Positions 35,169 to 39,164 of a stretch of DNA of 64,000 nucleotides are shown one piece after another. Under the pieces are notes generated by a model, which saw only the letters and a program-made list of their open reading frames with translations, did not search any database and was not told where the DNA came from. Each line of letters begins with the position of its first letter. Position 1 is the stretch's first letter. The position numbers were made by a program, and so were the translations under genes. The stretch comes from a phage, in the sequence record PZ445554.1, one strand, 5' to 3'.

Positions 35169-35762
35169 TTATTTCAGAGAATTAATATATTCCTGAACAT
35201 CGGCAGAGGTAGTTTCAACCCCAGAAATATTACCATTAAAGGTTTCAACTCGAGCAAGAGTATCTTCAATATCAACCTTAGTCAGTGCTGCAATTTCAAC
35301 TACATCATCAGCAGTACTAATTCCAAGTGCATTCGCTGCACGAGTTTCACGGATATATTCCAATTTAACTGCAAGTTCTTGGCGAGCATCATCTAACTCA
35401 ACTACTTTCTTGGCGATTTCAATTCGCATTTCAGCATACCCATCAGCTTTAGTAGTCAACTGCTCAGCTGTTCGACGATATAGCAAGCCGAGTTTAGCAT
35501 GCATTGTTACATCTTGACCTTCGGAAAGAAGCTTGCGAATTTCACGCTCTTTTGATTCAGCCTGTTTATTCTTTTCAACAATAAGTTCACGAATACGCTT
35601 TTCTTCATTAATAGATTTAACAGAAGCAGTTTTTAGATCTTTAATCTTATCAAGTAGTTTTGCTGCTGCAGCAGTATACTGTTCTTCAACAGATAGATTT
35701 TTAGCCATAGCAGAACCAAGTTTAGTGCGAATAAACTCAACAATTTTCTTCAGTGTGTTCAT
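35169..35762 (-). CDS. coiled-coil protein
   Basis: 197 aa; predominantly heptad/charged helical sequence. Confidence 0.55.
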
Positions 35763-35806
35763 AGTATTTCCTTAGGTTAATTAAGATTTAAAATCCATGA
35801 GAGTAT

Positions 35807-35983
35807 TATACTCCGGATAGTTTGTAAACTATTTCAACATCGCCTTTTGCTGCTTTATAACCTTCAGCCCAAGATACAACCGAGTTTTTATCTGAAGATT
35901 CAAATTCTGGCATTGGGCTTTCGCCAATGTTCACGCAGTATGTTTCTTCATTTTCGTCAAACCAAATAATTAAAGTAGTCATT
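35807..35983 (-). CDS. putative small acidic protein (58 aa)
   Basis: Hand-translated MTTLIIWFDENEETYCVNIGESPMPEF...; ACGGAGAAATAA RBS; below ORF-track cut-off. Confidence 0.3.
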
Positions 35984-36051
35984 TATTTCTCCGTTTTCTG
36001 TATTTGTTTTGATAAGTCTATAATAACACCGTCCTTGGCGTTTGTACACAA

Positions 36052-36327
36052 TTATTTCATATTATTGAAATATTCTTCTGCAATTTCGTCGTTATCATGG
36101 TAAACTTTAGAAGACAGTTTAACATAACCTTCAGCAGTGAACATGTTAATCACAACCTTTACAGTATACCACTGACCGTCTTCATTACCCATTACTGCAT
36201 AAGTTTCAAACATCGGATGGTCAGGACCGATAACTTTAATATCATTCACCGTACGACCAAAATCTTCTGAAACACATTTCATAAAGAAGTTGAACAGTTC
36301 ACCGTAATTATCCATTTCATTCTCCAA
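36052..36327 (-). CDS. hypothetical protein
   Basis: 91-aa ORF, GGAGAATGAA RBS, downstream of early promoter. Confidence 0.5.
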   Translation of the reverse strand: MENEMDNYGELFNFFMKCVSEDFGRTVNDIKVIGPDHPMFETYAVMGNEDGQWYTVKVVINMFTAEGYVKLSSKVYHDNDEIAEEYFNNMK

Positions 36328-36358
36328 GTTGTTTTCTGTATCAGCAGTTGATAGTTGT

Positions 36359-36388
36359 ATAGTACCATGGAAGAACAGGGATGTAAAC
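36359..36388 (-). promoter_or_regulatory. T4-type early promoter
   Basis: GTTTAC-N18-TACTAT with conserved ACAACTATCAACTG leader and A/T-rich upstream element. Confidence 0.5.
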
Positions 36389-36496
36389 AGTTTTGTGAAA
36401 AAATTTTTAAAAAGTTTTAGGGAATTCTAGGGTCAGGAGGGGCAATTAAAAGGTAGGATAATATATTATAAAGGGTATAAACTAAATGATGCCTAG

Positions 36497-36548
36497 AGAG
36501 GCCCGAAAAGGCCTAGATACCAAAAAGCCCCAACCTTTCGGTCGGGGC
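36497..36548 (-). terminator. tandem rho-independent terminators ending the tRNA/stable-RNA operon
   Basis: GCCCCGACC-GAAA-GGTTGGGGC followed by TTTTTG (36521-36548) and AGGCC-TTTTCG-GGCCT (36499-36514) on minus strand. Confidence 0.6.
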
Positions 36549-36836
36549 TAAGCCTTGCGGCAACCTTGTCGGGGTTCCACCTGCTAAGGCAAGTGTTTGT
36601 ACGAAACGCCGGGACTTGAACCCGGTTATTAAGTAGTTGACGCTACTCAATATTTTTAAAAGGCCATATCTCGACCATATCCGAACGTTCCGTCAAAAAC
36701 GCTACTCGGCTTACGGCAAAGATATTTCCTCGAATCGATAATTCGGTGCGCCGTTTCTGCTGTGATGTAAGAGGGCATCAATAAACGCAAAGATTATTAA
36801 CGCAATTCCTTACTCAGGGAACATCAGTCCGACGAC
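36549..36836 (-). ncRNA. probable small stable RNA(s) downstream of tRNA-Arg
   Basis: No ORF; GC-richer than surroundings; contains tRNA T-arm-like CCGGGTTCAAGTCCCGG; by position analogous to T4 stable RNA species; boundaries not defined. Confidence 0.3.
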
Positions 36837-37391
36837 TTACCGGTAGCGACCCGGTTTCTCATTTGGTATTTCAAATTGTGTAGATTTAGTATCTAATTTT
36901 TTAACTATGGAACTTATGTCATGAAAGAAAAACCATTCACCATTTATATGGTCCTGATTATAAATGCTGTGCATATATTTTTCAAGTTCTACTGCATCCT
37001 GGGAATATCTAAATGATACTATTTTAAAACTTTTAAACGGTGAAAATGTATTTGCTGTTATAACTCTAACATCAGGTTCTATACTTCTTCCTATTTTATA
37101 ATAATTAGGATTTGTAGTATCTACCATTATGTATACGAAAGCCTGTCGATAGCTTTTTTCTATATCAAATTCATCTTTAAATTTCAAAAGATTTAGGGCG
37201 GCAGTCCTACAAAATACTTTCCATTTTGACAAGCGTTTGGCTTTAGTCATAGAAAAGAATTTTTTCTTATCTGTTATTTTAAGAAAAGCAACATTTTCAA
37301 TTAGTTCTTGTGTTATTTCAAAATTACCATGGTATATTAATCCAGCTTTTATAGCCAAATTAATTTGGTCCCAGTCTACATCACTTCTCAT
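36837..37391 (-). CDS. T5orf172-domain protein (GIY-YIG superfamily, putative mobile endonuclease-like)
   Basis: 184 aa; C-terminal half FVYIMVDTTNPNYYKIGRS...SQDAVELEKYMHSIYNQDHINGEWFFF matches the T5orf172 core (YKIGxT...E..xH...GEWF). Confidence 0.65.
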   Translation of the reverse strand: MRSDVDWDQINLAIKAGLIYHGNFEITQELIENVAFLKITDKKKFFSMTKAKRLSKWKVFCRTAALNLLKFKDEFDIEKSYRQAFVYIMVDTTNPNYYKIGRSIEPDVRVITANTFSPFKSFKIVSFRYSQDAVELEKYMHSIYNQDHINGEWFFFHDISSIVKKLDTKSTQFEIPNEKPGRYR

Positions 37392-37412
37392 AATATTATT
37401 CTCTCAATAATT

Positions 37413-37489
37413 TGGCCAGGGTGAAAGGATTCTAACCTTTAACCTGCGGTTTAGAGGACCGCTACTCTATACAATTGAGTTACACCCCG
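37413..37489 (-). tRNA. tRNA-Arg (anticodon TCT)
   Basis: Cloverleaf: acceptor CGGGGTG/CACCCTG, D-stem ACTC/GAGT, anticodon stem GCGGT/ACCGC loop CCTCTAA, T-arm AAAGG-TTAGAAT-CCTTT, CCA encoded; unusual C33. Confidence 0.6.
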
Positions 37490-37615
37490 TAATTAGTTCA
37501 CAGCAATACCTACTCCAACAATCAAGATGTCTTCACACGAAATTAAGAGAAGAGTGATCAGTTCAACCCCTATAATCGCGTCAAGTAGATATTAATGTGA
37601 CAACTGTCACAAGTT

Positions 37616-37690
37616 TGGCGGACGTGATAGGATTCGAACCTATAACCAATCGCTTAACAGGCGATCGCTCTGCCATTGAGCTACACATCC
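37616..37690 (-). tRNA. tRNA-Asn (anticodon GTT)
   Basis: Acceptor GGATGTG/CACGTCC, D-arm GCTC-AATGGCA-GAGC, anticodon loop CTGTTAA, T-arm ATAGG-TTCGAAT-CCTAT, GCCA 3' end. Confidence 0.7.
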
Positions 37691-37694
37691 AAAT

Positions 37695-37781
37695 TGGTGG
37701 GGAGTGGTGGAGTCGAACCACCCGAGTCGCAATGACAATGAATTTACAGTCCACACCGCTACCTCTACGGGATAACTCCCC
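37695..37781 (-). tRNA. tRNA-Tyr (anticodon GTA)
   Basis: Class II tRNA, long variable arm; acceptor GGGGAGT/ACTCCCC, anticodon loop CTGTAAA, T-arm GGTGG-TTCGACT-CCACC, CCA encoded. Confidence 0.6.
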
Positions 37782-37794
37782 CTAATTCGTAATT

Positions 37795-37869
37795 TGGTGA
37801 CCCTGGGTGGAATTGAACCACCATCTGGCGATTATGAGTCGCTTGCTTGAACCTTCCAGCTACAGGGCC
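37795..37869 (-). tRNA. tRNA-Ile (anticodon CAT, lysidine type)
   Basis: Anticodon stem-loop GCGACTCATAATCGC identical to E. coli tRNA-Ile2; acceptor GGCCCTG/CAGGGTC; T-arm GGTGG-TTCAATT-CCACC; CCA encoded. Confidence 0.65.
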
Positions 37870-37870
37870 T

Positions 37871-37946
37871 TGGTGCTGATTGACGGAATCGAACCGCCGA
37901 CGTCCTCATTACAAGTGAGGTGCTCTACCTACTGAGCTAAATCAGC
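37871..37946 (-). tRNA. tRNA-Thr (anticodon TGT)
   Basis: Acceptor GCTGATT/AATCAGC, D-arm GCTC-AGTAGGTA-GAGC, anticodon stem CCTCA/TGAGG loop CTTGTAA, T-loop TTCGATT, CCA encoded. Confidence 0.7.
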
Positions 37947-37951
37947 AAAAC

Positions 37952-38041
37952 TGGCGGAGGCGATAGGATTTGAACCTATGAGTCGCCGGAGCGACTGCCG
38001 GTTTTCAAGACCGGTGCATTAAACCACTCTGCCACGCCTCC
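37952..38041 (-). tRNA. tRNA-Ser (anticodon TGA)
   Basis: Class II; acceptor GGAGGCG/CGCCTCC, anticodon stem CCGGT/ACCGG loop CTTGAAA, long variable arm, T-arm ATAGG-TTCAAAT-CCTAT, CCA encoded. Confidence 0.7.
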
Positions 38042-38043
38042 AG

Positions 38044-38117
38044 TCTCCGTGGCAGGATTTGAACCTACGACATTCTGCTCCCAAAGCAGACGCTCTACCA
38101 AACTGAGCTACACGGAG
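38044..38117 (-). tRNA. tRNA-Pro (anticodon TGG)
   Basis: Acceptor CTCCGTG/CACGGAG, D-arm GCTC-AGTTTGGTA-GAGC, anticodon stem TCTGC/GCAGA loop TTTGGGA; CCA not encoded. Confidence 0.65.
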
Positions 38118-38127
38118 TAAATTAAAT

Positions 38128-38201
<74 letters not shown>

Positions 38202-38206
38202 AAATT

Positions 38207-38293
38207 TGGTGCGAGAAGTGGGACTCGAACCCACAAGGAAATCATTCCGCAGCATTTTAAGTGCTGTGCCTTTACCAATTTGACCATTCTCGC
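38207..38293 (-). tRNA. tRNA-Leu (anticodon TAA)
   Basis: Class II; GCGAGAATGGTCAAATTGGTAAAGGCACAGCACTTAAAATGCTGCGG...GGGTTCGAGTCCCACTTCTCGCACCA recognised as T4 tRNA-Leu. Confidence 0.8.
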
Positions 38294-38294
38294 G

Positions 38295-38367
38295 CTGGGA
38301 ATAAAGGACTCGAACCTTTGCATCCTGGAATCAAAATCCAGTGCCTTACCAACTTGGCTAATTCCCA
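38295..38367 (-). tRNA. tRNA-Gln (anticodon TTG)
   Basis: Acceptor TGGGAAT/ATTCCCA, anticodon stem CTGGA/TCCAG loop TTTTGAT, T-arm AAAGG-TTCGAGT-CCTTT; CCA not encoded; 1 nt from tRNA-Leu. Confidence 0.7.
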
Positions 38368-38436
38368 ATTATTAACAAAGGCTCTCTAACAAGAACCCTT
38401 GATGATAGAGGGTATTAATCAGTGCGGTATGAGTTA

Positions 38437-38462
38437 ATAATAACAAATAATTCTTAAAGCAT
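38437..38462 (-). promoter_or_regulatory. candidate MotA-dependent middle promoter for the tRNA operon
   Basis: Minus strand ATGCTTTA (MotA-box-like) followed 12 nt later by TATTAT, ~70 nt upstream of tRNA-Gln. Confidence 0.3.
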
Positions 38463-38464
38463 AT

Positions 38465-38752
38465 TTACCATTTATGCTGATACATATTTACGATGCATTC
38501 AAGACCCAAAGGATTCTTGAAAATATCATATTCAAGAGGACCTTTTTCTGTTTCAATAAAGAAATCAAAATTTACTGTGTTAAATTTACGGTCTTCCTTC
38601 ACTAATTTAACTTGAGAAGATGAACGGTCAACATAAACCTTTTCAACTTCAAAACATGTTAAAATGCCATAATCATCAATCAAGGCTTTAGCTGCTTCTT
38701 GATCATATTTATATCCATTTTCAATGGATGATACTTTAGCATAAAGAATCAT
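38465..38752 (-). CDS. hypothetical protein
   Basis: 95-aa ORF. Confidence 0.5.
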   Translation of the reverse strand: MILYAKVSSIENGYKYDQEAAKALIDDYGILTCFEVEKVYVDRSSSQVKLVKEDRKFNTVNFDFFIETEKGPLEYDIFKNPLGLECIVNMYQHKW

Positions 38753-38789
38753 TATCAGCCTCTATCAACGATAGTATGAGTATGGGCAT

Positions 38790-39164
38790 TTACGATTTGC
38801 CACCAATCAAAGCGATTGGAACCATAATCCGGTTTATTTCATTTTCTTTAATGATATCACGTAGTTTATCTTCTGTTTCAGCATACGCAATTAAATCATC
38901 ATATCCACCACAAGGATAATAATTATCACCTGCAAATAAAAGAAAATTTACCTTAGATGGATTTACGTAATAATGGTCTTTAGGATATTTAGTTCCTCTC
39001 CAATCAGTTACTTCAACATAACGGTAAGAAAATCCATTTTTACTTTCAATCCAACTCCACGCTTCAAAAGGAGTATTAAAAACTTTATCAGGTATTAAAT
39101 TACCTTCAAAATGAGAAGGATTTGCATAATCCCCAGCATAAACATAATATTCGTTAATACTCAT
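38790..39164 (-). CDS. hypothetical protein
   Basis: 124-aa ORF, Tyr/aromatic-rich. Confidence 0.5.
   Translation of the reverse strand: MSINEYYVYAGDYANPSHFEGNLIPDKVFNTPFEAWSWIESKNGFSYRYVEVTDWRGTKYPKDHYYVNPSKVNFLLFAGDNYYPCGGYDDLIAYAETEDKLRDIIKENEINRIMVPIALIGGKS

Follow-up and report, generated by a model that had tools for sequence, protein, structure and literature searches.

A 64,000-nucleotide stretch of phage DNA (sequence record PZ445554.1, here called the window) is a segment of a T4-like (Tequatrovirus) genome, and its tRNA operon contains an open reading frame (ORF) of 184 codons on the minus strand (37391..36837). An earlier sequence-only reading had placed this ORF between a tRNA-Arg gene and a GC-rich stretch, which is where we find it. 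We consider this ORF a likely free-standing homing endonuclease gene (T5orf172 type) that spreads together with the neighbouring tRNA-Arg(UCU) allele (tRNA-Arg'), in a manner analogous to SegB and unrelated to it in sequence and architecture. We prefer this explanation because of the nuclease fold with its catalytic-type residues, the patchy distribution, the sharply bounded recombination tract, the halo of low divergence around it, the existence of alternative alleles, and the residence among tRNA genes; all hallmarks of a free-standing homing endonuclease gene that can be computed were found. The gene is thus read as a further case within a known class of selfish homing genes and not as a new kind of system. 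No description of it, or of any T5orf172 gene in a T4-like tRNA operon, was found in the literature, and its presence places a T5orf172-type gene in the genus of T4, although T4 is said to lack such genes (PMC10448857). The interpretation given in the sequence-only reading, an independent mobile-element insertion, is supported, with three corrections: the unit includes tRNA-Arg, the event was the replacement of a resident allele by a cassette, and the downstream RNAs are rnaD and rnaC.

The encoded protein: family, fold and selection

The C-terminal half of the protein had been recognized from the sequence alone as a T5orf172 core, and profile searches bore this out. Residues 85–155 matched T5orf172 (PF10544) above its curated cut-off (E-value 3.4e-6, 27.9 bits vs. 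20), MUG113 (PF13455) was matched with an E-value of 2.7e-9 (37.9 bits vs. a cut-off of 22.3), and the homologues KpV477, RN29 and T5p067 likewise exceeded the Pfam cut-offs for T5orf172/MUG113. The generic GIY-YIG profile (PF01541) stayed below its cut-off (13.1 vs. 22.6 bits), as expected for a divergent T5orf172 branch. Over its full length the protein matched PHROG 5032 (E-value 2.1e-59; residues 1–176 vs. profile positions 1–177 of 178), a family annotated as of unknown function; NCBIfam held no family for it, and a profile search of PDB sequences with this protein gave no match.

The AlphaFold2 model (predicted local distance difference test, pLDDT, of 90.7) contains the three-stranded sheet with flanking helices that characterizes the GIY-YIG fold, and the best structural neighbours of residues ~84–156 were the GIY-YIG domains of I-TevI, Slx1 and the UvrC N-terminus. 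Foldseek against PDB returned no significant match, with GIY-YIG proteins ranked on top. Several residues are invariant or nearly so down to 26% identity (T5p067): Y87 in the GIY-like FVYIM, Y98-K99-I100-G101 in the YIG-like motif, R109, E137, H141, and E152 in GEWF. Across 13 homologues, Y87, R109 and E152 are invariant and Y98 is conserved in at least 90%. The pattern of catalytic Tyr/Tyr/Arg and metal-binding Glu of GIY-YIG nucleases thus appears to be present, the catalytic roles being assigned by motif position alone. In the N-terminal domain, which is modelled as four helices (residues 7–15, 28–37, 42–47, and 50–74), the family-invariant residues are G17, F24, L30, R62, A64, A65 and K70.

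Comparison with the copy in Gaprivervirus VR26 gave a ratio of nonsynonymous to synonymous substitution rates (dN/dS) of 0.021/0.166 = 0.13, and we therefore regard the ORF as a gene under purifying selection. Among 1.84 billion representative proteins, 4 clusters matched at E ≤ 1e-30, 29 at E ≤ 1e-10 and 2869 at E ≤ 1e-3; among the matches listed, the closest were full-length and most of the weaker ones covered the C-terminal domain only. The two-domain family is small, and the nuclease-like domain is widespread. The annotation "hypothetical protein" in these genomes could accordingly be upgraded to "T5orf172/GIY-YIG family putative homing endonuclease".

A cassette with its own tRNA-Arg

The region 37490–36863 of the window is 95.4% identical over 628 nt to Gaprivervirus VR26 (locus L008, 2904–3529), while the flanks share only 72–77%. 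The common tract starts at the first base of tRNA-Arg' and ends with ...TTTGAAATACCAA after codon 176 of the ORF; the 21-nt spacer between both genes is near-identical in VR26. A diverged copy of the cassette (~81% nucleotide and 78% amino-acid identity) is present in Mosigvirus AV110, followed there by rnaD/rnaC. Within Gaprivervirus, VR20 and VR26 are 95–97% identical in the flanks, the ORF is absent in VR20, and the tRNA-Met/tRNA-Arg segment drops to 76.6% identity. The Tequatrovirus carriers differ from each other by 0–2 positions per 100 nt over 37599–36700, and the divergence reaches 26 per 100 nt in the tRNA genes immediately upstream; the cassette thus has a low-divergence halo of the kind expected if the gene had spread recently with co-conversion of its flanks.

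A sharply bounded tract of high identity around the gene and sporadic presence among close relatives at one locus, both hallmarks of homing, were thus found. The alignments indicate that the event was not the insertion of a bare ORF, as had been supposed, and that a 628-bp cassette with its own divergent tRNA-Arg replaced the resident allele; they also indicate that this cassette moved between phage genera (Tequatrovirus, Gaprivervirus, and Mosigvirus). The locus is a clear natural case in which a nuclease gene has moved across three genera as one unit with a tRNA allele.

The downstream end of the cassette was examined at the level of codons. Family members with an own stop end one or few residues past an F-x-x-P motif at about residue 177 (AV110, 177 residues: FDIPL followed by the stop). 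The tract shared by the window and VR26 stops just past the Pro codon, and in both the frame reads on into the downstream DNA, which adds a tail of 8 codons in the window (NEKPGRYR, then the stop; the last 26 nt of the ORF including the stop lie inside rnaD) and of 43 codons in VR26. The cassette ends with ATACCAA, the same seven bases as at the 3' end of the T4-type tRNA-Arg, GATACCAA, which is followed by rnaD. We had considered this heptamer as the relic of a disrupted T4-type tRNA-Arg, and downgraded the idea once AV110 was seen to use ATACCA as the Ile-Pro codons of F-x-x-P, followed by its own stop. Because of these codons, ATACCAA more probably represents a 7-nt microhomology at which the cassette joined a T4-type backbone.

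Alternative alleles and distribution

Alignment of the tRNA region with T4 and its relatives defined the boundaries of the exchange. Homology with slur04 breaks at 37505 and returns at 36859; with T4 it is lost at 37858, inside tRNA-Met/Ile, and returns at 36869. In T4, the order is segB, then tRNA-Arg and, after 1 nt, rnaD, and this junction (tRNA-Arg directly followed by rnaD) was at least 80% covered in 62 records. In slur04 and many relatives, the slot is filled by tRNA-His, a different tRNA-Arg and an ORF of 116 codons (PHROG 3355); this allele (slur04, locus L003, 2497–3023) was at least 80% covered in 279 records and is the commonest alternative occupant. VR20 has a 79-codon ORF (PHROG 33509) in the slot. 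Since the arrangements of the window, the slur04 type and the T4 type differ between common flanks, at least three alleles alternate between the same conserved sequences, i.e., the spacer 37490–37615 and rnaD.

Copies of the ORF with at least 90% identity were found in 16 of the 1011 phage records sharing the tRNA region, and segB was absent in all carriers examined; UFV-AREG1 and 236Ecol005PP are among the carriers. The ORF is thus not universal, and neither outcome that would have refuted the sequence-only reading (no T5orf172 profile match, or the ORF at this site in all relatives together with segB) was obtained. Neither segB nor a paralogue of the ORF was found in the window. Copies of tRNA-Arg' with at least 98% identity occurred in 11 records (7 distinct phages), all of them among the matches containing the ORF.

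These distributions bear on the possibility that the T5orf172 protein has been domesticated, as a DNA-binding regulator or as a nuclease directed against competitors (phages, satellites), and does not promote its own copying. Strong purifying selection would agree with such a role, the term T5orf172 appears in papers on a "domesticated endonuclease" of PLE satellites and on a "chimeric nuclease" of ICP1, and PADLOC returned matches, all weak, to nuclease domains of candidate defence proteins (PDC-S57, 3.5e-5; PD-Lambda-1, 3e-4). The gene is rare and patchy within each genus, however, and its boundary coincides with that of the recombination tract, as is typical of homing endonuclease genes and not of an accessory function that has become fixed. 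Moreover, a phage that excludes the markers of a rival by cutting the rival's DNA uses the same mechanism as in homing (PMC2330249). On balance, we consider domestication unlikely.

Two side observations concern the slot itself. Downstream of tRNA-Arg lies a hotspot for small ORFs without known function, and neither the 116-codon and 79-codon occupants nor a 157-codon ORF found nearby in relatives received an informative Pfam or PHROG annotation.

The tRNA-Arg' allele

The tRNA-Arg' gene is unusual: it has C33 in place of U33 (anticodon loop CCUCUAA), a T-loop UUAGAAU with A for the usual C56, and a D-loop without GG, and in BLAST searches it did not align with the T4-type or the slur04-type tRNA-Arg. 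C33 is common to the three cassette copies (window, VR26, and AV110) and absent in the cassette-free VR20, SG1 and slur04. A search with two 15-nt pattern scans, which return mostly unrelated tRNA-Arg genes, revealed C33 in the tRNA-Arg(UCU) of 12 unrelated IMG/VR viral contigs, one of which carries the ORF. C33 is therefore taken as a recurrent phage variant and not as a mark of the cassette; the idea that it is an immunity mutation against this particular nuclease was dismissed as not specific, as 11 of the 12 contigs lack the ORF. The altered T-loop also breaks the core recognition motif of SegB, GGTTCRANTCC (motif from PMC2330249).

A separate observation regards the susceptibility of the window phage to SegB. 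The extra tRNA genes of the window, Met, Tyr and Asn, form a T2L-like set, and tRNA-Asn (37616–37690, minus strand) contains GGTTCGAATCC, which corresponds to the core SegB recognition motif. The preferred SegB site was mapped in the tRNA-Asn of T2L (PMC2330249), and the window phage would probably lose its tRNA region, including the cassette, in a co-infection with T4.

The allele could also be what selection acts on. In that case the variant tRNA-Arg(UCU) would be the selected cargo, its C33 anticodon loop and changed T- and D-loops perhaps helping it, for example, to escape a host nuclease that targets tRNAs; ordinary recombination plus selection would explain its spread, and the T5orf172 gene would be a passenger or a decaying relic. 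Phage tRNAs with a changed anticodon loop may, as has been proposed, escape anticodon nucleases of the host (PMC10264068), tRNA-Arg' always travels with the ORF, the recurrence of C33 in unrelated contigs suggests that this base is selected in its own right, and the ORF has no native stop codon. The low dN/dS and the invariant catalytic-type residues nevertheless speak against a decaying passenger. In addition, the homologues in Klebsiella and Serratia phages adjoin ordinary U33 tRNA-Arg genes, and T5-like paralogues adjoin Lys, Asn and Thr tRNAs, which makes the nuclease gene, and not a tRNA allele, the constant element. We regard selection on the tRNA as an improbable explanation of the whole pattern.

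Comparison with known systems

SegB, the proven tRNA-gene-targeting homing endonuclease of the same operon, recognizes a motif in the tRNA T-arm, cuts preferentially in the T2L tRNA-Asn, and converts ~1.25 kb of the T2L tRNA region (PMC2330249). Both genes are free-standing, lie in the same tRNA operon next to tRNA-Arg and belong to the GIY-YIG superfamily, and the neighbouring tRNA genes that SegB is known to drag along when homing would have their counterpart in tRNA-Arg'. The sequence-only reading had held that a different nuclease family occupies a different position from segB in T4, and this was confirmed: segB lies upstream of tRNA-Arg and our ORF downstream, BLASTP found nothing significant between the two proteins, and the ORF product is not placed in the Seg family of T4 (SegA–G). 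The architecture is also reversed: in SegB the GIY-YIG domain is N-terminal and the NUMOD3 DNA-binding part C-terminal, whereas in the ORF product a helical domain comes first and the T5orf172 domain last. SegB cleavage has been demonstrated, whereas the ORF product is a putative nuclease.

For ICP1, T5-like and other phages, it has been proposed that T5orf172 genes are homing endonuclease genes and that they mark the boundaries of recombination (PMC10448857). The ORF shares with the ICP1-type genes the nuclease domain family, the position at recombination-tract boundaries ("HEG islands") and the exchange between lineages; the former are stressed near essential protein-coding genes and differ in their N-terminal domains, whereas the ORF, linked to a tRNA allele, belongs to the tRNA operon of a T4-like phage. 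The third group of relatives is structural: I-TevI, Slx1 and UvrC have the Tyr, Tyr, Arg, Glu pattern in common with the ORF product, but I-TevI is encoded within an intron, Slx1 and UvrC act as repair nucleases in cells, and the ORF product scores below the GIY-YIG cut-off of Pfam.

How the cassette may spread

In the mechanism that we propose, the N-terminal helical domain would serve for targeting and the C-terminal domain as the nuclease. During a mixed infection, the protein would cut a cassette-free rival genome in or near tRNA-Arg/rnaD; the break would be repaired from the carrier genome via the conserved flanks, i.e., the spacer 37490–37615 and rnaD; and the repair would carry over both the nuclease gene and the divergent tRNA-Arg(UCU) allele linked to it, this allele being presumably immune to the cut. 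As they are highly conserved, tRNA genes would make good targets for such a nuclease. Nuclease activity, cut position, immunity of tRNA-Arg' and biased inheritance are thus inferred. With SegB hosted by the same operon, the locus would be a tractable one in which two unrelated nucleases may compete for one region, and in which the reshaping of phage tRNA sets by such elements can be studied.

Several points weigh against homing by this gene. The homing role of PHROG 5032 members is predicted from sequence and model. The N-terminal domain had no Pfam domain match and no PDB profile or fold match, i.e., it shows no recognizable DNA-binding fold. The copies of the window and of VR26, with foreign C-terminal tails in place of a native stop, might be at the onset of decay. 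Going by the PLE satellite and ICP1 "chimeric nuclease" papers, domestication of T5orf172 domains for roles other than homing can occur, and selection could be on the linked variant tRNA as the cargo.

Association of the family with tRNA genes

Sixteen homologue loci were compared, taken from GenBank phages and IMG/VR contigs, and at 15 of them tRNA genes directly flank the ORF on the same strand. In five T4-like genera (Tequatrovirus, Gaprivervirus, Mosigvirus, Jiaodavirus, and Muldoonvirus), a tRNA-Arg(UCU) precedes the start codon at a distance of 15–21 nt. In the closest T5-like paralogues (39–40% identity), the ORF runs 33–39 nt into a downstream tRNA-Arg(UCU), and the distant T5-like paralogues sit between Met/Lys, Glu/Lys or Cys/Asn tRNA genes and read 10–24 nt into the next one. 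T5p067, from the tRNA region of T5 (Demerecviridae) and perhaps the founding "T5 ORF172", has a similar length (172 residues) and the same two-domain architecture, and matches our protein over residues 14–170 and Pfam T5orf172 end to end; its gene, placed between tRNA-Cys and tRNA-Asn, overlaps the latter by 24 nt. It differs, as do the T5-like paralogues, by its low identity to the ORF product (26–29%), its virus family and its tRNA neighbours, and it is annotated as hypothetical.

Such an association could suggest that the protein acts on RNA, in the processing of tRNAs and stable RNAs or in the cleavage of the host tRNA-Arg, which would explain its location in a tRNA operon. The family is consistently found in tRNA clusters, its ORFs run into the next tRNA gene, and a faint resemblance to a viral RNase III-like family, below the threshold, was noted for the RN29 homologue. 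Against this, no RNA-binding or RNase domain was detected with Pfam and NCBIfam, the structural neighbours of the nuclease-like domain are all DNA nucleases, and most T4-like phages are without the gene and yet have the same tRNA and stable-RNA genes; SegB further shows that targeting of tRNA genes at the DNA level suffices for the location (PMC2330249). We hold a function on RNA to be very improbable.

A broader version of the homing explanation would see in PHROG 5032 a lineage of homing endonucleases specialized on tRNA genes and shuttling variant tRNAs (here the C33 tRNA-Arg(UCU) with its changed T- and D-loops), with the stop-less ORF ends coupling expression to tRNA 5' processing. The adjacent tRNA allele would then always be co-converted and shuttled between T4-like genera, perhaps also between T4-like and T5-like phages, and cleavage at the 5' end of the tRNA would turn the mRNA into a non-stop one, which would limit the dose of a toxic nuclease. 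If true, the lineage would be a driver of the evolution of phage tRNA repertoires; taken together, these steps form a tentative and rather doubtful extension.

As an observation apart, family ORFs without an own stop were seen in seven genomic contexts, in which they end 10–39 nt inside the next tRNA gene or, in the window, in rnaD (Table 1). Such ends may reflect a compaction of the tRNA array, or may couple translation to tRNA 5' processing.

Layout of the locus

ARAGORN predicted ten tRNA genes (Gln, Leu, Gly, Pro, Ser, Thr, Met(CAU), Tyr, Asn, and Arg(UCU)) in the operon, which lies on the minus strand, and the tRNA region is 95–98% identical to that of many Escherichia T4-like phages. In the direction of transcription, tRNA-Asn is followed by a 126-nt spacer, tRNA-Arg(UCU), 21 nt, the ATG of the ORF, rnaD and rnaC (Table 1). 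The G+C content of the ORF (27–29%) is lower than that of its neighbours; low G+C is usual for the seg and mob genes of T4. The stretch past the ORF had been described as GC-rich and non-coding with tRNA-like elements. It is a GC-rich RNA region indeed, and the elements are the known genes rnaD and rnaC, named via the T4 annotation: alignment with the annotated rnaD/rnaC segment of T4 gave 96.5% identity over 572 nt, collinear throughout. A scan of 35500–39000 against Rfam yielded tRNAs as the sole matches and no rnaC/rnaD family. What had been called a strong double terminator is reduced to one clear terminator (36549–36526), the second hairpin (36514–36499) having no T-run and not being conserved in T4.

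Table 1 Features of the tRNA-Arg'/ORF/rnaD locus (window coordinates unless a locus is named)
Feature	Position	Strand	Basis
tRNA-Arg(UCU), variant allele (tRNA-Arg')	37413..37489	-	ARAGORN; Rfam tRNA, 59.3 bits; clean cloverleaf
21-nt spacer with weak Shine-Dalgarno-like GAGAG 9 nt ahead of ATG	37392..37412	-	Read from the sequence
184-codon ORF with ATG start, PHROG 5032 family, putative free-standing homing endonuclease	36837..37391	-	Pfam, PHROG, dN/dS, AlphaFold2
N-terminal four-helix domain (residues 1–80), candidate DNA-binding/targeting module	37152..37391	-	Model helices; family conservation
T5orf172/MUG113 (GIY-YIG superfamily) nuclease-like domain (residues 85–155)	36927..37139	-	
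ORF/rnaD overlap: last 8 codons and stop of the ORF inside the rnaD 5' end	36837..36862	-	Junction alignments with T4, slur04, VR26
rnaD (species 2 stable RNA) homologue	36745..36862	-	Aligned to T4 annotation 71053–71171
rnaC (species 1 stable RNA) homologue with tRNA-like T-arm CCGGGTTCAAGTCCCGG	36600..36738	-	Aligned to T4 annotation 70908–71046
Intrinsic terminator closing the tRNA/stable-RNA operon	36526..36549	-	10-bp stem with 7 G-C pairs, then T-run; conserved in T4
Cassette, laterally transferred: tRNA-Arg', 21-nt spacer and ORF codons 1–176	36863..37490	-	Identity tracts vs. VR26, AV110, carriers
Overlaps of stop-less family ORFs with the next gene	L005 3005–3043; L006 3025–3034; L007 4469–4492; L014 2014–2046; L016 1827–1836; L020 1929–1938; window 36837–36862		

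Some minor features were recorded around the ORF. The 126-nt spacer between tRNA-Asn and tRNA-Arg' (37490–37615, minus strand) has a minimum free energy of -31.9 kcal/mol (z = -2.45 vs. shuffled sequences), is conserved with slur04 up to 37505, and contained no detectable tRNA or Rfam family. In the 3' part of the ORF, a sigma-70-like promoter match (36985–36957, minus strand; TTGAAA, 17 nt, TATAAT; 11 of 12 positions) is aimed at rnaD/rnaC; the regional total of such matches did not exceed the expectation from shuffled sequences and the match may thus be due to chance. Further downstream, some relatives (UFV-AREG1, locus L002, 3442–4032; also L003) carry a segment of ~520 bp that encodes a 157-residue protein of unknown function (PHROG 2280) and lies between two direct copies (36 nt) of the rnaC terminator hairpin. 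The window (empty site 36517–36552), like T4, has a single copy of the 36-nt repeat and no 157-codon ORF, and this segment represents a second presence/absence cassette in the same operon.

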